A stretch of 61,703 nucleotides of DNA, counting the filler, from Porpidia crustulata (Eukaryota): NCBI GenBank assembly GCA_964255105.1. It is 8 parts of 8 records of this genome, joined end to end, with 100 filler letters (N's around TTAATTAATTAA, not from the genome) between each part and the next. Parts side by side here need not be neighbours in the genome. Positions count along the whole stretch, not along the records: positions 38,659 to 46,277 come from CAXUWE010001276.1; 7 more parts are not named here. The stretch is one strand, 5' to 3'. Position 1 is the stretch's first letter. Every line of letters begins with the position of its first letter. The position numbers were made by a program, and so were the translations under genes. Below are positions 28,028 through 49,353 of this stretch, piece by piece. The notes under the pieces were generated by a model that was not told the DNA's origin, ran no database searches, and was given only the letters and a program-made list of their open reading frames with translations.

Positions 28028-30271
28028 TCAAGTAGGGGTCTTATGCACCAGGTCTGCGTGGTTCTGCGAATGCACAGTGCTTCCCAAATCGACGTGGCAC
28101 CTCGGATGAGGGCACGCAATCCGCTGACCGGCCGGGTGATGGCGAAGGTGTTTGCGATGAAAGTGCTTTTTCAGGTCGCCGCGGCTGTGGAAGGACTTCA
28201 GGCGGGTCTCGGTGGGCAATGCTTCACAACCGAGACAAAAGATGCATTGAGTGGCTTCGCATTCGATAGGGATGGAGTCGGAAAGACTCGGCAGATGGAG
28301 GACCGCTGGCCGTGTCAGATCCCGTTCAGGCTGGGAATCCGAAGCGGAAGGTTTCAGGCGCCGTGTACGCTTGCCTTCCTGCAAGCGGCAGAGTGCTGTT
28401 AAAGCATTGATCGCTTCCACCCGCCGTCTGCACTCTTCTTCGGGAGACGAAGTCGCAAAAGTGAAGATCGCGTCAATGACCCGGACACGCTCAACGAAGA
28501 CGTAATCCTCTGCCTTCGCCTTTTCCAGTTCTGCCGACGGCAGTCCTTTCAGTTGTCGCTGGATGTCGATCACCGGCTGCTCCCTTTTATACCTCGCTTT
28601 GACCTCTTGTAAGAGAGCCTCCTCACGCCGCCGTTTCATGTTGCGATGGGCGTGGTACGTATTTTGGTACTCGTCGTACACCGGCGTCCCCTTCATGCTC
28701 ACGACGGATCCGTGTTTCTCTCTGATGAACTTTGAAAGCGTCTTCTGCCTCCGGCGAAGGAGCCTCACCTCCGGGTGGCGATCGACTTCTGCTCGTTGGG
28801 CAGCATCGAGCTTGCGAGGCCGTCGTCGATCGATGGTGCGACTCATCCCACTGGCCAGTCGCATCAACGCGGTTTGCGGCTCCAGGCCACGGTAGGCGGC
28901 TCCCGTATCACCTGTAATATACCTCGAGAGATAGCTTTTTAAGAACACAGTGGAGTTGTGATGTTGCAAAATCAGATTCCGTTGCGATTCGCTGATGAAG
29001 CCTGTGCACGATTCAGCGAAAATATCGCAGGGAGGTCAAGGGTGACTACTCACTGCTGTTGTCGAGGGCTTCGCCACTGCCGCGCCGAAAGGTATGTGGA
29101 CCGGTGGGAAGCTCCATGCCGGTGACACTCCCAAGAGTGACCATCCGCGAGCGGAGAGTACTGTCGGGCAGAGCTTCGTCGTCGGAAATTTGAACCCCGT
29201 TCACGGTTGGTTTGGATCGGCGGAAGAGGGGAACACGTTGCATGGTTTCCTTAAGAGGCACTGGCAACTGTTTCTGTCCAGAGGGGATCCGAAGGCGGAA
29301 CAACTGTTCGGGAGAAGTTAACTCGGGCGCGGCGAAGGCCTGATCGGTAAAGATCAGAGTAAGCAAGTTCACGTGAGGACAAAGCAGCAAGCAAGGTTCG
29401 TTAGGTACGTCAGGAATCCCGAACTCATTCCCAAAATAATTGTGAGCCGCCCAGCCAAACGGTCCGTCCCCACGAAGGGGGCGCAAAAGGGGACACGGAC
29501 GTCTCTTTCTCGCCCAGGTAGCCCTTGGTATTTTTGAATGCGATTTCAATCAGCCTTCGAGGAAGTTCCCCTCCCTTCGGATCGGGAAGCAAGGTGATTT
29601 TGATGTCTTCGTAGCGAACACCCAAAAGAGCAGCAGGCCGGTTGCCCGTGATCCCTGCCAACTGCATGATCAACGCCAGCTGTACACGGTGCCGCTCGTG
29701 ATCAAAGGCGATCTCCAACGGAGAGGAACAATGTCTTCAAGAGCTCGAACTCGTCCTCGGCCCGCATGATGGGCTTCTTCTTCTCCTCCGTTCTTAATCC
29801 ATGCTTCAGAGCCAGCCGTTGTCTCACCTGATACCCGTTAGCCGAGAAGAAATGGCGTTGAGCCACGTACCCCGTGCATCTGGCTCTTGATGAGCGGGTC
29901 GATCTCGAGACAGCCCGTCTCTTTCTTTCGCACCAGGCAAAACACATTCCAGTATGTTTGCAGGGTACTGGCCGCGCCCAGCCGATCCTTGCGAACGGAG
30001 AGTAGCCAGTCAAAGAAGACGAAGAGAACGTTGATGGAAATGCCCTTCAGAGCCATGACAGGCTCCTTCCCAGTGAATTCGCAATATCTGCCGAACTTGA
30101 TCAGACTTCGCCCATCCTCTGATCGACAGCACGAACATCTCCTTACCGATACCAAAGGTTCTTGATCCAGCTCTGCAGATCCTCGCTGCTATCTTTGTAG
30201 ACTCGTTGGGTGAGTGTCAAAACGTCCAACTCGACTTCCATTTGCTTGTAGTATTCTGCCGAGAGTTCCAT
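28028..30271 (-). mobile_element. Starship captain: DUF3435 tyrosine recombinase with C-terminal Cys/His zinc-finger region, apparently disrupted
   Basis: Exons approx. 30271-30147, 30087-29871, 29827-29501, 29430-29053 and 29002-28028 give AEYYKQME...LWYRYC, LQTYWNVFCLV, HRVQLALIMQLAGITGNRPAALL, TKGYLG, LLCPHVNLL, HTFRRGSGEALD, QRNLILQH, YLSRYI, GMSRTIDRRRPRKL, QCIFCLG and CPHPRC. Candidate R-K-HxxR-H-Y catalytic residues are present. Frameshift near 29720. Confidence 0.92.
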
Positions 30272-39725: not shown

Positions 39726-40268
39726 ATGCCGGTAACCGCGCAAGCCTTGACCACTAACACGGACGGATACATCATCACATTGCCGTATGTTCGCAGCACA
39801 GCAACGTATACAACCCTTCTAACTTTGAGTAAATCAACACCGACTGCGGAAGCTGTCACTTCATCCGATCACCACCATGGGCTTTCATCCGCATCAATCG
39901 CTGGTGCCGTTATCGGCTCCGTCATTGGCGTCGCAGTCCTGTTGTTACTGCTCTACTTCTGCTGCTTCAGAGATTATGATACCTATGAGGACTCCCCTAG
40001 CAACAGCACCACATCGGACGGAGGAGGTCGACACGAAATGAAAAAGTCCACGACCAAGACTTTCCCAGGCGCAACGATGGTCAAGAATAAGGGAGGGGGA
40101 AAAGTCGGACTTGCCGACGACAGCGGCAATGCAGTCGCATGGGTTCGGAAACCTCGACCAAAACATAAAGCGCCATTGAATCAACCAAGGTCTAGTACTC
40201 GGTCGAGAGGACCAGGTCGAAGGCATCCTATTGAGGCTGTCGAAGGCTTGGACTACCCTGGAAACTAA
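39726..40268 (+). CDS. Small single-pass membrane protein (Thr/Ser-rich N-terminus, TM helix, basic tail)
   Basis: 180-aa ORF. GLSSASIAGAVIGSVIGVAVLLLLLYFCC is a Mid2/SKG6-type TM helix with juxtamembrane cysteines. Confidence 0.7.
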   Translation: MPVTAQALTTNTDGYIITLPYVRSTATYTTLLTLSKSTPTAEAVTSSDHHHGLSSASIAGAVIGSVIGVAVLLLLLYFCCFRDYDTYEDSPSNSTTSDGGGRHEMKKSTTKTFPGATMVKNKGGGKVGLADDSGNAVAWVRKPRPKHKAPLNQPRSSTRSRGPGRRHPIEAVEGLDYPGN

Positions 40269-40649: not shown

Positions 40650-41495
40650 ATGGGAAAATCCTATCTCCTGGCCCCAACGCGCGATAATCCCCCCAACGGC
40701 CCTATCGCCCTCGGCAATATCATTGCCTCCCCCTCCGCGCCCGAAGACCGCCTAAATCCCACCCCAACCCTTCTGAATCTCCCCATCCACGAGTCCTACC
40801 AAACGAATTTCTTATCAGAAGTGAGCCGGTACAAAGCCGGCAAGATCGGAATATGGACGAGTTTCCTCCAATCCCTTGGCATCGGAATCGACCTCAGCAT
40901 CAACTATGAGATTGCGAATACTGAGAAATTCGAGTTTGAAAGTTTGGAAACTAGGTTTTTCACTCCGGATAGGCAATTTGTGGAGAGGTCAATGGAGGGC
41001 GATGACGTGCAGGAATTTATTAAGAAGAGTAAATTTAAGGCTAATGTGTATATGATCATTGGAATCAAGATCGCGAGGGGCGCGTCTGTGACGAGCACGA
41101 AGCTAAGGGAGAAGGGTTTGCATGTGCAATTTGGGGTTGATGCGACGCCAATGGGCGTGCCGCTGAGTATTGGCCCGAATGTTGAGGTTGAGGGTGGACC
41201 GAGGGAGAGTACGGCTTTTGAGAGCGCGGAGGGCTTTGTATTTGCATATAGGTTGAGGGAGGTATTTTATTCCAGGAAGCAGGGTTTGGTCATTCGTGAG
41301 TATAACAAGGGCGCTATATTTGGGATCGATGGTGGGAGTAAGTTTGAGGCGGAGGTTGGGGGGTAGGAGGTAGGTAAGGTTGATATACTGGGGATAGCTG
41401 AAGAGGATGTTGGAGGTGAGGATTTGGATTTGGATGGTGAGGAGGTTGCGGATGACGATGACGAGGTTTGTGAGAGTGTAAGTTTGAGCGCATGA
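40650..41495 (+). CDS. Fungal gasdermin (HET-Q1/RCD-1 family). ORF stops at TAG 41364-41366 (238 aa); the frame continues to TGA 41493-41495 (281 codons)
   Basis: Family hallmarks: YLLAPTRDNPPNGPIALGNII, GIWTSFLQ, FESLETRFFTP, VYMIIGIKIARGA, GVPLSIGPNVE, FVFAYRLREV and YNKGAIF. An acidic tail ending DDDDEVCESV lies beyond the TAG. An S8 protease gene is adjacent. Confidence 0.87.
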
Positions 41496-41781
41496 TCTGC
41501 GATTTATGCCTTGTTGGACAAGCTGCTTCCACGCTTGTTATGTTTGATGGTCGACGATCTTGTTTAAACTTGTTTGCTTCAGGCTCTCATCTCATACAGT
41601 CAAGCTTGGAAGATAGATATCGATGAGGTCATGACAATCATATGTACATAAATATATACCGCTGTATCGTATGATGAAGGAACGCTTGCTCAAGCGCATG
41701 ACAGAAAGGCAGTGAATATCACTCCATGCAATGCCACAAGCCTGGATCGGCACCACATCCCCACCGGTGGCTGAAAAATAC

Positions 41782-44235
41782 TTAGCCTGGATCATCTTCC
41801 AGGCCAAACGCGCTGTCAAGGACATCAGATATACGGGAAGCGATACGAGTGACGGAGTCTTTGCCCATTCGCTGGTCCAGCAATTTCCAAGGAACGATAT
41901 TCTTATACCCGTCCTTCTCCTCACCCATGGCGGCTAGAACTTCCCTCATGCCTTCCATGGTTTTTAGTCGCGCACGGTGGGTGATTTTGATTAACGGTAT
42001 CTTGGAGAATTCCAGGATTAGAGCGGCGATAGCAGCAGCAATTGGCGTTGCTGTCGACGTCCCCCACTGACGTTTTTCCGGGCCTTTCTTCAAGTCTTTA
42101 GGCCAGGCAGAAAGTACAGCTTCACCCAGAGCGGAAAAGTTGTGGCTCAGAGCGACAGCTGGAGGATTGTATTTTGATCTTGCGCCATTACCATCTGCGG
42201 AGTTGATGCAGATGACTTTGAGCATCGCCGAGGCGGGAAAGGCGATTTTGTCATTCGCACCATGGTTCGCAGCAGCAGCAAACATGATGATGTTCTTGCT
42301 AGAAGCGTAGTCGATGGCTTTTTCCATACTTAGATACCTGCGCGGGAAGCCGAAGGACATGGTGATGATGTCGACTTTCCACTTGTCCGCTGCATGCATG
42401 ATGGCCTGCATGGGCTTGATCAGCTGGAAAGGGAATGTGATGGATGACTTCAAACCTGAGAAACATTTTCCGGTTCCAACGTGTCTTTATAGTCTTTGAC
42501 CACTCGGGCGACATAAATCTGCGCTTCTGGCGCGACTCTCATTAGCAATGCTGCAGCATGCGATCCATGACCGCAGGTGTCTTTGTCGCCGTCTTCTACA
42601 GTCCAGCTCTTTACCTCCTTGCCGCGCTTCTCCCACTGCTGTTTAAGATCAGGATGGCTTAGGTCTATCCCGGTATCTAGGATGGCGATCTTGACTCTTC
42701 TCATGAGTTCTTTTCGATGAGGCGCAAGTAGTCCTTGTGTGTACGCCTCCAGACGCTGAAACCAAGCGTCTGCCACTTTGGCGCTGCTTGAACAAGTGTC
42801 ATCATGAGAGAATTAGACATTTGGTTCTTATAACGTACCTTGGCAAATCTTCGACTCCTCTATGCGCGTCACAGAGATTGCTATAGATGTTAAGCTCTTT
42901 CAGTAGATCCCGTACTTCCACCGGCTCTTTTGGCTTCTTGGCGCGCTCACCCGTCTTTATTGGACCTGTCTTTGGTAAATTAGAAACGGACTTGGAAGCC
43001 TTGAGCTTTGAGGGTACAGATTCAGGTGACTGGTCGTCATTGGTTTCTGCTGGCTCTCTTGGATGTGGCCCAGCTGATGACGCTCGTATCGCGATGTCAT
43101 TGGGCACGGGGAGCCGTCCTTTGTCATAAGAGATTTTTCTCTGGTTGCGGTCATGGTTGCTCTTCGAACCTTGGTTGGTAGTTTCGGGTGAAGAGGATGA
43201 CCGGTCGATAATCGTGCTCCCACGTTTTGCTTGCTTATGCCCTTGCTCTTCCTTTGGCGTTGTGCGTGATTCGTTGTCTGATTTTGATCTGTTTTGCCGT
43301 GACGCAGCCTTTTTTGCGGAGTCCACTCTCACTCTGAAATGGGTGCTGCGATTTGGAAGAGCTTCATGGCCAGCGGTATCATCCTTTGCCCTCTTATCCT
43401 TCTGATGGTCTATGGGCTTCCCATGTGTAGTCGTTGTCACATGGCTTTCTGCATTCTTAGTATCCTTTTGCTCAAGATTGCGTTTTGTCTTCCTCTTCTC
43501 CCATTCAAGCTCATTTTGCTTATCAAGTGCTTTGGTGATCTTTCTACAAAGCTCTTCGCTAGTGGCGAATTGAGGATCGTCTTTACCTTGCGCTCTTAGG
43601 ACGTTAATGTTGCCCAGCACGAGTGACTTGGCTTCCCTAAGGCGATCGAGGTGAAAGAGATTTGTCGCGAGGTTGTGTTTGGTCGCAATCAGGTCAACGT
43701 CCGTTAAGGGCTGCTTCTTACGCTGCCCAAGATTTTCTCTATTCAGTTTCTCTGCTTCATCGTACAGGTTGAGCTCTTCAAGAGTAGCAGCGAGGTTGTG
43801 CCGACTGGAAAGCGTGTCTTCATTATCTTTTCCCAGCGTGACTTCTCTTGTCTTAAGCGTCCTCCGATCTAGCTCTGCGGCTTCTTTGTAGCGACCCAGT
43901 CTATACAGATTGTACGCAAGATTGTGTTGAATCTCAAGCGTCTCAGGATGTTCTTCTCCGTACTTCCTCCTCCTCATATGTAGAGTCTGCTCGTTAAGGG
44001 TTGCTGCGTCGTCGTATTTTCCAAGCTCGTGCAAGGTGAAAGCAAGGATATCTTGATCGTCAAGCGTCACAGGATCCTTGGGGCCAAGGGTTGTTTTGGC
44101 CCATGCAAAGTTTTCTTTAAATAATATGGACGCTTGGCCGTATTCGCTGCCCTCGAGATGCTTACGAGCAAGGTCATCTTTCCTGTTATGCTCCCGAATA
44201 CCTTGATCGCGTATCCAAACGCTGTGCAGGGCCAT
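41782..44235 (-). CDS. TPR-repeat / S8 subtilisin-like serine protease fusion (~783 aa, 3 exons)
   Basis: Exons 44235-42839, 42786-42456 and 42405-41782 are joined in frame by 52- and 50-nt GT-AG introns. About four 42-aa TPR repeats (e.g. YGEEHPETLEIQHNLAYNLYRLGRYKEA), a charged low-complexity linker, the intact triad ILDTG / GHGSH / GTSTA and oxyanion AANHG. No signal peptide. Confidence 0.9.
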
Positions 44236-44468
44236 GCGAGCCAGTTGTCTGGCATAATAGACCTGAATACATAAAGCTCAAAAAGGGACCGAATAAATTT
44301 TAGAAAGTAAAGCTTCGTCGCCAGAAATCAGCATACTAAATGTGCCAAAGGAAGGCTGAGGCCTCCATGACTCGAGAAAACTCCGCGAGTATTCCCACAA
44401 GCCCCTGCAACTTTCGGGGTGCCCCGCCAATTGGCTTATCGCGGGGGCTTACCGTAGATTTCATGCTA

Positions 44469-44725
44469 CAATAGAGTTGGTTTTTAGTCTAGACCCATTA
44501 GGCTAGTCATCACACTCCGACAAAAAACATGCCCTATTGTACCTGCTATGGCGGAACAGCCATAGCAGCTGGGAGAAAATTGTATACAGCGAAGATATAG
44601 AGAATCAATAGCATTACAGACACTGAATTTGAAGATTTTTCATCAGAGCTTCTGTTGTTGATATACGGAGCGTTTGGTAATGCCCCATATTTTGCGATGG
44701 TCTAGACTAAAAACCAGCCTTACTG
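44469..44725. mobile_element. MITE (Tc1/mariner-like, TA target duplication), 257 bp
   Basis: TA|CAATAGAGTTGGTTTTTAGTCTAGACC ... GGTCTAGACTAAAAACCAGCCTTACTG|TA: ~27-bp imperfect TIRs flanked by TA, with no ORF. Confidence 0.75.
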
Positions 44726-45037
44726 TAGTCATGGCTCGTTGGCCTGTGGGGGCGAAGGCACAATCTCAATGCAACTTCAGACCCTCTCTTCAAATACCAT
44801 GCAAGCTATCAATTCCAGTGATTTTCCGGTTCGGCGCAAATAAAGTTGATTTTACTTGGTTTTAGAGTAATGAACAACTTCAGCAAAACTAAAAGCGTAT
44901 TCGGACTGGATAGCTACTTTGCTTAGCCAAACAAGCATAGACTATACGCTTTGATAAATTGGACCATTAGCTTTATTTGCTGTCCTTTTTCCTCCAGGGT
45001 TGCCTTGGTTTATGTAAAAGCGTCAATCCATAATCGG

Positions 45038-45875
45038 TGTCATAAACCGGACTTCACGTGACGTTCAAGGGACCTCATAGGGTTCGAGGAAGCTCTCTGA
45101 GGTTTGGCCCAATTGGGTTGAATCTTGAGTTATATTAGTATCAGAGCTGTGATCAGGGTGAAGTATGCAAAAGGGATAAGTCTTGTATTGACTTGCTAAG
45201 CTAAAGTGGCTCAATGATTTAGATTGACTACGGTTCTTCATTATGCAAGGGAGAACGAGGGTGTTTATATACACGACATTGCTCAGGATGTTCAGGATGC
45301 TCAGTGACTGATCATACTGAGCATACTGAGCATCAGTCCCGATGCTTGCCCTTCTGGGGTTGGCGTAATGCTAGCTCCCCATCATACTCAGGTGAACACT
45401 CTCTTAGGTTAGTGTGTCTTCGGGATTCCACCAATCCTAACATTCCAATCCTAACAACGGAACTCGTTGGCCTAAGGAAGGGGTTCAACATAGTACGCTA
45501 ACCCCACAAAAAGTTCTCCCTAGCACGCCTGCCCAAAAGGAGAGGCAGAAGAAGGTGACTAAGCAAGGGTGCCAAAGAAAGTAATCAGAGAGATCAGAGC
45601 GATCAGGCATAATCACTCTGATCAAGCTGATCACCTCAGATATATAAACACCCTCGTTCTTCCTTGCAAAGATGAAGAACCGTAGTCAACTTAAGTCACT
45701 AAGTCACTTTAGCTTAACAAGTCAATATAAGACTTATTTCTTTTGTATACTTCAATCTGATCGTAGCCTCGATACTAATATAATCTAAGATTCAACCCGA
45801 TTGGACCGAACCTCAGAGAGCTTTATCGAACCATATAAAGTCCCCTGAACGTTACGTGAAGTCCGGTTTATAACA
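45038..45875. mobile_element. 838-bp element with ~235-bp inverted arms (fold-back/MULE-like, or two inverted solo LTRs)
   Basis: 45038-45271 matches the reverse complement of 45642-45875 at roughly 80% by eye, mostly transitions. Termini are TGT...ACA. Confidence 0.8.
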
Positions 45876-46277
45876 CATGGTCTGATAGATTTCAGAAGAC
45901 CCTTTGAGGATTTGGCTAAGATCAATCGAATCAGCAGGGTATGGAGCAGAGATAGAAGGGAATTACATTGCAGAAGTGAGAACTCATTTACCCTGGTCTC
46001 TTTTATTTTAAGCTATACATCGAGATAACCGCTTTACTCCTAAAATTATACGAGGGAATCAATTAAGCAAAGAAATGAGTAGGGGGTAAAAAGGGATAGC
46101 ATTTAGGATGGCTAAAAGGAAGCTTTTAAGAATATAAGGACCTCAAGGAATTAAAAAACAACTAAGGCAACTCAAGCCGAGATAGAGGAAGCCCATTTCA
46201 GGCTCCCACGTGCTGCGCCCTGCACTGCCTCGTGCTCCCTCTCTGTTCCCTCAGCGCTCCCCCGCGCTCCCCCTGTG

Positions 46278-46377
46278 NNNNNNNNNNNNNNNNNNNNNNN
46301 NNNNNNNNNNNNNNNNNNNNNTTAATTAATTAANNNNNNNNNNNNNNNNNNNNNNNNNNNNNNNNNNNNNNNNNNNN
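46278..46377. other. Artificial contig spacer
   Basis: N44-TTAATTAATTAA-N44. Confidence 0.99.
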
Positions 46378-49353
46378 CCGCCCCCCCCCCCCCCCGCCTG
46401 CCGATCGGGGCTCTCAAATCATCTCACTTGCCTGACTTTGCCTAGAGTAAATCCCCCAATGACCGGTCAATCGACCTTGTCACTTGTGTGCCGGCCAAGC
46501 TCCCACAAGACCGGCTGCTGCTCACTCGCTATCCTGATCCCGACGTTCCACTAACCATACTTACCATAACGCAGGCACATCTAGCTCGATCGCAATTTTC
46601 GGACCCCGTTAGCTATCACCCCCGGAAAAGATTGACCATACGAGTAATCAAGTATTTCTCCGTCCGGAGATGTGGGAAATTCTATCAATTAGAAAACATT
46701 CACCCCGACATTTGACAACACAATTGAGAACCATAATAACATTCTAGAACAAATTGCTTTTCCGGAAACCCGTCCTATCCGGCTGGCTCCAGGTTGACCG
46801 CAGAACCGAATTCAGGAATTCGTTAGGTACCAAAGGCATCTCGGGTCCAGCTTGAACGGGAAGAAAGGTACGGGATGCTTCATCGCGGCAAAGTCGACCC
46901 GCTTGTGCGGAATGACTGGAAAACGCTACGCCATGTCAATAATCCTCCTGCTTGTAGGATTGCATTCCAGAATTTGCAGCAGGATCGTGTAACATCAATC
47001 CGACCGAGCAATTGCAATTTTGGATAGAGCAACGCCCAAAATGGATGAGGCGAGACGTCTTGCGAGATATTACTATGTAATCAGCGCACTTCACAGCCAT
47101 GCCGCGCCCAGGTAGGAATTCATTTACCTAGTGATCGTTCAAATTGCTAAACGACCGAACCCAGGCCTTGATAACGAGCACGTAGCTGGAACAGATGGCC
47201 GGGAAAGACCCTCCGCAAAAGGCAATTGTGATTTCGTTATCATCTTTCCTATCCAATATCTGTTGTGGCTGGCCATTACAATGTTTTGATAGGCCGTTCA
47301 AATGCATTTAGCTGAATCAATGACTTATATACAAGCTGCCACGAAAATTCGAACAATCGAGCATTGATGCTGCACATAGGAATTGCAACACGTTTGACCA
47401 TCTAGTTGCAGTCCAAGAAATCGAACAAGATAAGAAATTACAAGAATCGGCGTCAGGTACTATACATGTTTGGCCAATTTTTGATCAAACATCCCTACCT
47501 TATTGATAAAGCTGGTCCATCTTAATGGGGTTATTATCCACACAGCCCGCCATCCCAGGGCCATTGCTACACTCATGTATATCACGAGGCCAAAGCTTCT
47601 CCGATGCATGTCCTGACGATACTCGATCTATCGACAGTTGGTGCAAGTGTCTTGCCCCTAGTCCTTCGATACTAGTGAGACACGAGAGAGAGCTCATCAC
47701 GGCCATCGTGACACTTGGGCATGTCAAGCAATGTAGTCACAGATAGACCGCGCCTTTCTCGTCGGCAATTTCGGGTACCCAGGCGAGTGCAAAACAGGTA
47801 GGCAAATCAGGCAAATTTAGAAGATGTCGCTTGCAGGTAAGAGAGCTCTTAAGGCCCGTTTCGTCCACTATTGTGACACCCCCTTGGTGACACGCAGGAT
47901 CACAATATCCGAATCGTGAGGGAATATGAAATGGTGTTCGCAGAGTAATCCGGAAACGGAGTTTCTTTTGCATCCTGGACCCTTGTGATCTCTTTTGTTA
48001 ACACGGAGGAAGGTGTGCACGTTCTCGAGTTTCATCAAGCGTGACTTACCCATCCACACGAAGGTGAAAAGTCTCTCTCTATCCTTGCTGTCTCTGCGGC
48101 CTTTAGGTACTATGAGACTGGACTATGTGAAAGACTGCAAATTTTTTGTTTCTTGGCTAGGACTCTCTTTAACATGGCTGGGAAAGCATACGAAACCTCG
48201 GAGTGTTAGGAAAGTCATAATCCAATCCATAAGCAAAATTGAAACGTGACATTTGAAGCATGTAAGTCCGAGTCTCTTCATAAAATCTCAGCTAGAGATT
48301 GATATTCAGAGCGATGCTCACAATTCACCAAGTGGAGTGACGGCCTTTGCCCAACAGTATCGTCATTCTGGAGTAATTGTAATATTCAATGTTCAATGTA
48401 ACTTTCTTGCTAGTAGGAGTATATTGACCGTGTATTCGATTGTATAACCTGAAGATATATGCTTGCAGACGTCAGGATGAGCGAATCTGACTTCACTGCC
48501 GTTGGAAGAGATACCGGTTTGTGCTGTGGTATCGCTGTCGTCTAAGTGATACTTCCATAAGGGGCATAGCCAAGGCTAGCAAGAGATAGTGAAAGCATTA
48601 CAGCAAAATGTTGAAAAGCTTTCCTCAAGTAAAAAGTCTTGAAGTCCATTGTCTCAAGTGACTAGCTACGTACCCATCGCTATTTGCGTCTGCGGAAGAA
48701 TCTCATATATATGTAGTTCAATAAGCCTTCCGTGCACAGTAGATTGTATCTTAAAATATCCACCTTCAGCTTTCTCGATTTTCCGTTGCATTGTTTTGTC
48801 TGCTCAGCATACATTGACTACAGGTAACACTCCTGATTTGATGTTCACTTGCACTGTGAGTCGAGACTTCTTTCTGACGAGATTAGAATTGATGATAAGA
48901 GAAACGAGATTGAGAGAACCACTAACAGCAATGGGTAATTCTGATACACCTCCAGAAAGACCTAGCTGAACAATGATTATTATTGAATATTAACTGACTT
49001 TTGCTCTAGACATAAAGCGATAGAAAGGTGGAAGACGTCACAATTGTAATAACATTATCGAATATTGAATATGACGTTCGGGCAATTTAACGTGCTGGCC
49101 TGGTCCGGAAGTCCAGACGAATCCCTGTCTTGGTTTGTAGGGGAGTAAAGTGGAGGGTCCGGTTCCAAACTCGGAAGGGATGGTATTGACCCAGGCTTGT
49201 GACTATCGTGCTAGAATTCTTCAACCGGAAAGCTGTAAAACAATATCATAATCCCAGTGCTTGATGCTATAAAATTTTTAACGAACGTCCAAGACCCGAA
49301 TCTGACTTAAAGTAGATACGCTGATCCCATTTCCAAGCTGTCGGGTTCTCGGG

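Follow-up and report, generated by a model that had tools for sequence, protein, structure and literature searches.

We describe a gasdermin gene in a window of 61,703 nucleotides (filler included; eight parts of the Porpidia crustulata genome joined end to end) that carries an in-frame TAG at the very end of its linker, directly ahead of a preserved C-terminal tail. We propose, with a probability of roughly 60%, that this represents a recent, genuine nonsense mutation in a standard cluster of a gasdermin gene and a TPR-S8 protease gene, and that the truncated product is probably inert, making this a null allele. In our model, the locus is a typical het-Q1/het-Q2-type pair of cell-death genes, in which the gasdermin gene converges on the gene for a TPR plus subtilisin (S8) protease. 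The gasdermin of related fungi, ~281 residues long, comprises a pore domain, a disordered linker bearing a cut site (K-G-A-L-F/Y/L) and a structured acidic tail of ~40 residues that, by homology, would keep the pore domain inactive until it is removed by the protease. A single substitution would have turned codon 239, at the end of the linker, into TAG, and the DNA of the window would now encode the pore domain and a 14-residue stub without the structured tail. The mutation would be recent, the remainder of the gasdermin gene, the tail and the protease gene being intact, and its product would most likely be an inert or poorly expressed null rather than a constitutive or newly regulated pore former. 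The allele may be polymorphic in the population; polymorphic loss alleles are common among fungal cell-death and incompatibility genes. We infer that the TAG is present in the DNA of the organism at high frequency.

As originally predicted, the gene encodes a fungal gasdermin belonging to the HET-Q1/RCD-1 family, an assignment that follows from matches in both sequence and fold. Pfam returned no match to the 238-aa protein. A phmmer search against solved structures matched it to Neurospora RCD-1-1 (8jyz_A, E 8.6e-10) and to the Podospora HET-Q1 pore chain (9uv9_A, E 7.3e-5), and a profile built from 24 homologues gave E 1.5e-22 and 9.2e-12 for the same two structures and extended to bacterial gasdermins at E ~6e-3. 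By profile, the family comprises 2,188 cluster representatives at E <= 0.001, of which 636 pass E <= 1e-30, and the residues that are nearly invariant within it are all present in the window's protein. An AlphaFold2 model computed from 126 aligned sequences (mean pLDDT 77.3, pTM 0.73) had the RCD-1 pore (8jyz_A) as its top Foldseek match (E 9.6e-13, TM 0.54/0.64); the next matches, each at probability 1.00, were bacterial, Trichoplax, GSDME and GSDMD pores. The model contains very long beta-hairpins (strands 47-69, 78-103 and 146-163), and with the tail included it still resembles pore-state structures more than soluble ones.

The closest named homologues of the gasdermin and of its neighbour gene belong to lichen-forming ascomycetes (Cornicularia normoerica, Lecanora helva, Lambiella insularis and Usnochroma carphineum), and our literature searches found no paper on gasdermins in lichen-forming fungi. 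Judged by these homologues and by its other genes, the window would derive from the chromosomes of such a fungus. Elsewhere in the window are ordinary fungal housekeeping genes, including those for Nup133, a CLC channel, an MFS transporter, an RNA cyclase, a MEKK-type kinase and a Vms1-like protein. This is the only copy of the gasdermin gene that tblastn with the nearest homologue found in the whole window, and base composition around the locus revealed no AT-rich block of the kind left by RIP. Just upstream of the gasdermin gene, at 39726-40268 (+), lies a 180-aa ORF with no Pfam match; it begins Ser/Thr-rich, contains a single hydrophobic stretch (GAVIGSVIGVAVLLLLLYFCCF) and ends in a basic tail. 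The coordinates of the features are collected in Table 1.

Table 1. Features of the gasdermin-protease locus, in positions of the window.
Feature	Position	Strand	Basis or comment
Gasdermin ORF as written	40650..41366	+	ATG at 40650, 238 codons and TAG; pore-forming domain and first part of linker
KGAIF motif (K220-F224), F224 being the predicted P1 of the protease cut	41307..41321	+	Family motif, mapping onto HET-Q1 chain
14-codon stub G225-G238, variable disordered linker that stays on the truncated product	41322..41363	+	pLDDT, identity to P0002
In-frame TAG, codon 239	41364..41366	+	Aligned with E of P0002
Preserved acidic tail, 42 codons and TGA (41493-41495); putative inhibitory C-terminal peptide by homology	41367..41495	+	Alignment to P0002, model
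Candidate 60-nt in-phase GT-AG intron (GTAAGT...TTGAT...TAG)	41338..41397	+	Enumeration; judged unlikely
Protease exon 1, TPR repeats and low-complexity spacer	42839..44235	-	Pfam TPR_12 5.9e-26, TPR_10 5.4e-25; P0036 residues 87-304
Protease exon 2, initial part of S8 domain, bearing Asp (AILDTG) and His (CGHGSH)	42456..42786	-	Pfam Peptidase_S8 1.9e-10; P0036
Protease exon 3, rest of S8 domain with Ser (WGTSTATP) and stop codon	41782..42405	-	Pfam Peptidase_S8 1.4e-13; P0036

Past the TAG, the gasdermin frame stays open for 42 codons (EVGKVDILGIAEEDVGGEDLDLDGEEVADDDDEVCESVSLSA) before it reaches TGA, giving 281 codons in total. By our own estimate, an open frame of 42 codons has a probability of ~0.13 of arising by chance, but chance would not account for the homology of the tail. 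Re-reading the coordinates gave the same codon 239, continuation and total as had first been described, and likewise placed the stop 14 residues after F224, the last residue of the KGAIF motif. As written, the ORF ends at codon 238 and lacks a C-terminal inhibitory peptide, which would be present in the same ORF if the TAG were read through.

Comparison with relatives demonstrates that the sequence behind the TAG is a true gasdermin tail. A homologue search yielded 35 proteins, the window's own included, and the nearest of these relatives (P0002 to P0010) are 279-292 residues long. Residues 1-281 of P0002, a protein of 281 aa that is 66% identical to that of the window, fall on 40650-41492 in a single ungapped tblastn segment with the TAG inside it. 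Counted part by part, the pore domain shares 152/224 residues with P0002 and the tail 29/42, whereas the stub from F224 to the TAG shares 3/14; the alignment needs no gap across the 281 positions. The tail was also set against the C-termini of gasdermin homologues, and on its own it aligned ungapped with that of P0002 (29/41 identities, E 3e-9), so the preserved acidic tail of the original prediction is indeed homologous. Given that the tail is as conserved as the pore domain and colinear, without gaps, with 281-aa orthologues, the stop must be recent or not real. At the TAG column, a 126-row alignment has 31 gaps, 23 Glu, 18 Asp and no Trp. In the structural model, residues 212-237 of the linker are disordered (pLDDT <50) and the tail forms three short strands (244-253, 263-267 and 273-277; pLDDT ~78-84). 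The stop therefore lies at the very end of a flexible linker and removes the whole of the structured tail, which, by homology, would be the inhibitory C-terminal peptide.

Is an interrupted but preserved tail a habit of this family? We assembled a set of 178 proteins (the 35 homologues and 143 new ones from a profile search, matches to the protease being left out), among which 143 reach position 270 of the 284 in the profile or beyond, 20 reach 250-269 and 15 are shorter. The median number of residues after the P1 column is 57. Fewer than 30 follow it in five of the 178, namely the window's protein (14), P0189 (18) and three fragments too short to reach the cut-site motif, such that only 2 of 175 motif-carrying family proteins end this early. 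At the DNA level, a metagenome scan recovered 80 loci of relatives, none conspecific and the best 46% identical; 77 could be evaluated, the other three running off the ends of their loci. Counting from the FVFAYR motif, 75 of these 77 have 66 or more residues of open frame, as compared with a stop after 44 in the window, and neither of the two exceptions (L009 and L062) has a same-frame tail behind its stop. Thus, an in-frame stop followed by a same-frame tail occurs in 0 of 77 relatives' loci, and both counts indicate that the combination seen here is a one-off. The earlier proposal of a readthrough or editing switch finds no echo in these loci, in which the stop does not recur. No conspecific intact allele was found either, the best other protein being 66% and the best locus 46% identical. 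One of the exceptions deserves separate mention: at 4580-4710 of L009 the gasdermin frame breaks right after a KGAMYS cut-site motif and several stops lie behind the break. L009 looks like an independent pseudogene that arose by frameshift, and its close relative L008 carries an intact gasdermin.

The second gene of the cluster is intact. Adjacent to the gasdermin, as first noted, is an S8 protease gene, here resolved into an exon model of 783 codons with TPR repeats and a Peptidase_S8 domain, free of stops and with two canonical introns at 42787-42838 (52 nt; GTACGT...CTAAT...AG) and 42406-42455 (50 nt; GTTTGA...CTGAT...CAG). It is convergent with the gasdermin gene, from whose TGA it is separated by 286 nt. 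The S8 part is 66% identical to that of P0036, a TPR+S8 protein of 940 aa that aligns along the gene, and the Asp, His and Ser motifs are all present, the triad being assigned by motif. An S8 match lies within the 4-kb flanks of 64 of the 80 relatives' loci, or of 28 of 32 when only loci of 8 kb or more are counted; these counts include copies from sister assemblies and do not represent independent events. Clave et al. (PMC8851545, in the portion available) reported that, of 1,884 fungal gasdermins, 63% are clustered with an S8 gene and ~80% with a protease gene of any kind.

Two other stretches of the window stand out. The ~5 kb that separate the protease gene from the gene for the MEKK-type kinase (44300-49300) have normal composition (GC 0.41-0.46) and no tRNA, and the longest stop-to-stop frame there is 108 aa, with none of at least 120; a tRNA scan found no tRNA genes in the window. 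At 28031-29035 (-), an ORF with a DUF3435 match (4.1e-55) sits in a locally GC-rich block (0.56-0.57, against ~0.47 around it) and is possibly a piece of a mobile element.

Whether the truncated protein could be active depends on where it ends relative to the protease cut. The KGAIF sequence had been proposed as the likely cleavage region, and it fits the family's cut-site motif, K-G-A-L-[Y/F/L], in which K is found in 104, G in 158, A in 138 and L in 106 of the 178 proteins; the P1 column holds Y in 64, F in 48, L in 41 and M in 9. HET-Q1 is cut between F238 and A239, and both L237 and F238 are required for its cleavage (PMC8851545, PMC13475620, from the available parts of both). The deposited HET-Q1 pore chain has 232 residues, and the Tyr at its position 15 fits Y21 of the paper, an offset that would make the chain residues 7-238, ending at F238. 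Our profile alignment stops at chain residue 223, opposite R216 of the window, which leaves nine chain residues facing eight window residues up to F224. F224 would therefore match HET-Q1 F238 within one residue, marking it as the predicted cut site, and the window's product would end at about HET-Q1 residue 252.

The behavior of HET-Q1 truncations does not favor an active product. In the available text of PMC8851545, HET-Q1(1-238) is strongly toxic, 1-239 only slightly so, 1-237 not toxic and 1-233 partly toxic, and constructs 1-218, 1-247 and 1-261 gave transformant numbers like those of wild type. When 1-261, 1-247, 1-233 and 1-218 were confronted with a HET-Q2 strain, a barrage formed with 1-261 only (PMC8851545, same portion). 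The original prediction held that the 238-aa product mimics the processed form. That view now appears untenable, as the product extends 14 residues beyond F224 and HET-Q1 proteins that end 1-23 residues past the cut have little or no toxicity. By analogy to HET-Q1, itself a distant relative, the 238-aa product would not imitate the processed form, would not clearly be open to activation either, and is probably inert. A complex prediction for residues 1-238 with the 42-residue tail scored 0.00 and carries no weight either way.

Our preferred reading requires that the TAG be real. The locus was found in a single run, X1 (93% of sampled words), in contigs only, and in no RNA run. The contigs break at the gasdermin gene, into a piece that stops at 40727, a second covering 40739-41393 and a third that begins at 41385. 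The middle contig, of 655 nt and depth 5.1, covers the TAG, and the contig from 41385 has depth 11.8. Relative to the window, the 655-nt contig has three differences and the flanking 328 and 616 bases have none, indicating that the sample holds a second gasdermin haplotype. Two of the differences, 41339 T>G and 41343 T>A, fall in the linker and are non-synonymous (S230R and F232I by our reading); the third is close to an end of the contig, from which the T of the TAG is 30 letters away.

These data bear on a competing explanation, namely that the TAG arose as an error of assembly or consensus, or reflects a minor variant in a mixed-strain sample, and that the real gene encodes a full, capped gasdermin of 281 aa. 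Such an explanation would need a single base change to account for everything, and it sits well with the low k-mer depth (5-12), with a tail that displays no decay and with a second haplotype of exactly this stretch in the sample, at three differences in 655 nt, the third of which could be at the TAG itself. We nevertheless consider it unlikely. A random stop-making error within one 843-nt gene should be far rarer than a real nonsense mutation, by an estimate of ours that was not computed. Moreover, F232 of the window agrees with P0002 and the residue of the other haplotype does not, which argues that the window's allele is not simply the error-laden one. A contig of 7,619 nt is also recorded as encoding an identical 238-aa protein, a modest corroboration since the reads behind it may be the same. 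Together, the record and the agreement at F232 weigh in favor of a real mutation.

If the nonsense mutation is real, the truncated protein could still function, either gated by the stub and trimmed at F224 by the neighboring protease, or through allelic co-assembly without cleavage, as in RCD-1. In support of this, the pore domain, the KGAIF site and the protease gene are intact, in length the product is close to the tail-less RCD-1 chains (248-261 aa), and the same sample holds a second haplotype with non-synonymous differences. To our knowledge, RCD-1-type control involves no clustered protease, a point against the second of these modes. A further argument for stub gating is that few extra residues suffice to block HET-Q1 toxicity, yet HET-Q1(1-247) gave no barrage with HET-Q2 (both from the available text of PMC8851545), so a substrate with nothing more than a stub may not be cut. 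Considering also that only two of the 175 motif-carrying proteins end this early, and that the fully preserved tail coding sequence implies no time for selection of a new mode of control, we regard a functional uncapped form as improbable. We attach still slimmer odds to a more elaborate version, in which the TAG is real and maintained, and the 14-residue stub would act as the sole brake on the pore, to be fired by trimming at F224, or the cap would be restored stage-wise by editing or by an allele-specific intron.

Could the stop be bypassed in RNA instead? The original claim denied that any in-phase intron of normal length could take out the TAG; it has to be revised, for enumeration uncovered four in-phase GT-AG candidates: a GTAAGT donor at 41338 paired with AG at 41397 (60 nt), 41403 (66 nt) or 41415 (78 nt), and a GTGAGT donor at 41296 paired with AG at 41373 (78 nt). 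The real introns of the protease gene measure 52 and 50 nt. Splicing remains unlikely in that it would delete the conserved hydrophobic VDILGIA block of the tail and relatives read as one uninterrupted frame at this place; in addition, the other X1 haplotype (G at 41339, A at 41343) has the GTAAGT donor of the 41338 intron destroyed. As for readthrough, UAG followed by G is not known as a leaky context. RNA folds of 41355-41500 and 41325-41405 were no better than shuffled sequences (z +0.78 and +1.92), and no hairpin loop was predicted at the A of the TAG. In the accessible part of PMC11156358, genome-wide A-to-I editing of mRNA is described for Sordariomycetes and one Pezizomycete, and was not found in Aspergillus nidulans or Botrytis cinerea. 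Fungal editing is reported to prefer U at -1 and often to correct UAG in 'pseudogenes' during sexual development (PMC11156358, PMC10776026, as available in part).

A bypass yielding capped and uncapped forms by UAG-to-UGG A-to-I editing, readthrough or 60-nt splicing thus has in its favor the preferred U at -1 and the known repair of UAG in fungi, a normal-sized in-phase GT-AG pair with a perfect GTAAGT donor around the TAG, and a fully preserved tail, and is the least probable of the explanations considered here given the A outside any hairpin loop, folds worse than shuffled, editing confined in the partly available source to the two fungal classes named, no relative with Trp or a stop at the position, the unfavorable G after UAG and the loss of the VDILGIA block that splicing would entail. 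Among the options first put forward, a nonsense allele, a dead allele and a sequencing error all stand, with a dead allele, or a recent nonsense allele without new control, now favored; the readthrough or editing switch finds no support, there being no RNA structure, no Trp in the column and no recurrence in relatives.

A plain nonsense allele, if that is what this is, would add one more case to the turnover of fungal cell-death genes. Its main value would then be as a warning for annotation: what gene callers report as a 238-aa 'tail-less gasdermin' would in truth be a truncated HET-Q1-like gene. The analysis further documents the gasdermin and TPR-S8 cluster in lichen-forming fungi. Should the truncated form prove functional, it would bear on the minimal C-terminal sequence that holds a gasdermin inactive, and a maintained TAG would amount to a natural experiment on the minimal element that silences one.

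Several known systems resemble this locus in part. With HET-Q1/HET-Q2 of Podospora anserina (PMC8851545, PMC13475620, in the parts available) it shares an S8 protease partner with Asp, His and Ser motifs present. Sequence similarity to HET-Q1 is distant (profile E 9e-12), and the two genes here lie side by side in one haplotype rather than as idiomorphs. The protease has N-terminal TPRs and ~783 residues, compared with 366 for HET-Q2, and the part of the gasdermin after the cut has 57 residues rather than 40 and is broken by the TAG after 14. A further likeness is to the clustered het-Q1-like/het-Q2-like pairs of other fungi (PMC8851545, available portion), in which a gasdermin of ~281-292 aa sits beside a multidomain TPR+S8 protease gene, although their tail is uninterrupted and that of the window is not. 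In Cudoniella acicularis the pair bears consecutive locus tags, g6947 and g6948, and several of the relatives' metagenome loci have the same convergent order as the window.

RCD-1 of Neurospora crassa reportedly has no inhibitory tail and becomes active when two antagonistic allelic forms assemble together; we know of no clustered protease in that system. It is the best match in sequence and fold (PDB 8jyz), and the truncated product is of similar length, but the window retains both the tail coding sequence and a protease gene. Hence none of the three marks of RCD-1-type control (no tail, no partner protease, two antagonistic forms) was found here, the second haplotype differing at only 3 of 655 bases. 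Bacterial gasdermins likewise combine a pore domain with a short peptide that is removed by a neighboring protease, yet they are very distant (profile E ~6e-3) and their partner protease is caspase-like.

Two further comparisons concern the stop itself. Genes of Fusarium graminearum with premature stops that are restored by editing (PMC10776026, PMC11156358, each available in part) also have an in-frame UAG in an otherwise intact, conserved frame, whereas the UAG of the window lacks a hairpin context and its host belongs to a class for which the available parts of these papers report no editing. Lastly, het-Vb in Neurospora has acquired independent premature stops that are polymorphic within species (PMC9262711, available portion). 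It belongs to a different family from the window's gene, but the likeness is that of a gene for cell death or allorecognition in which one lineage carries a premature stop and intact copies exist alongside.
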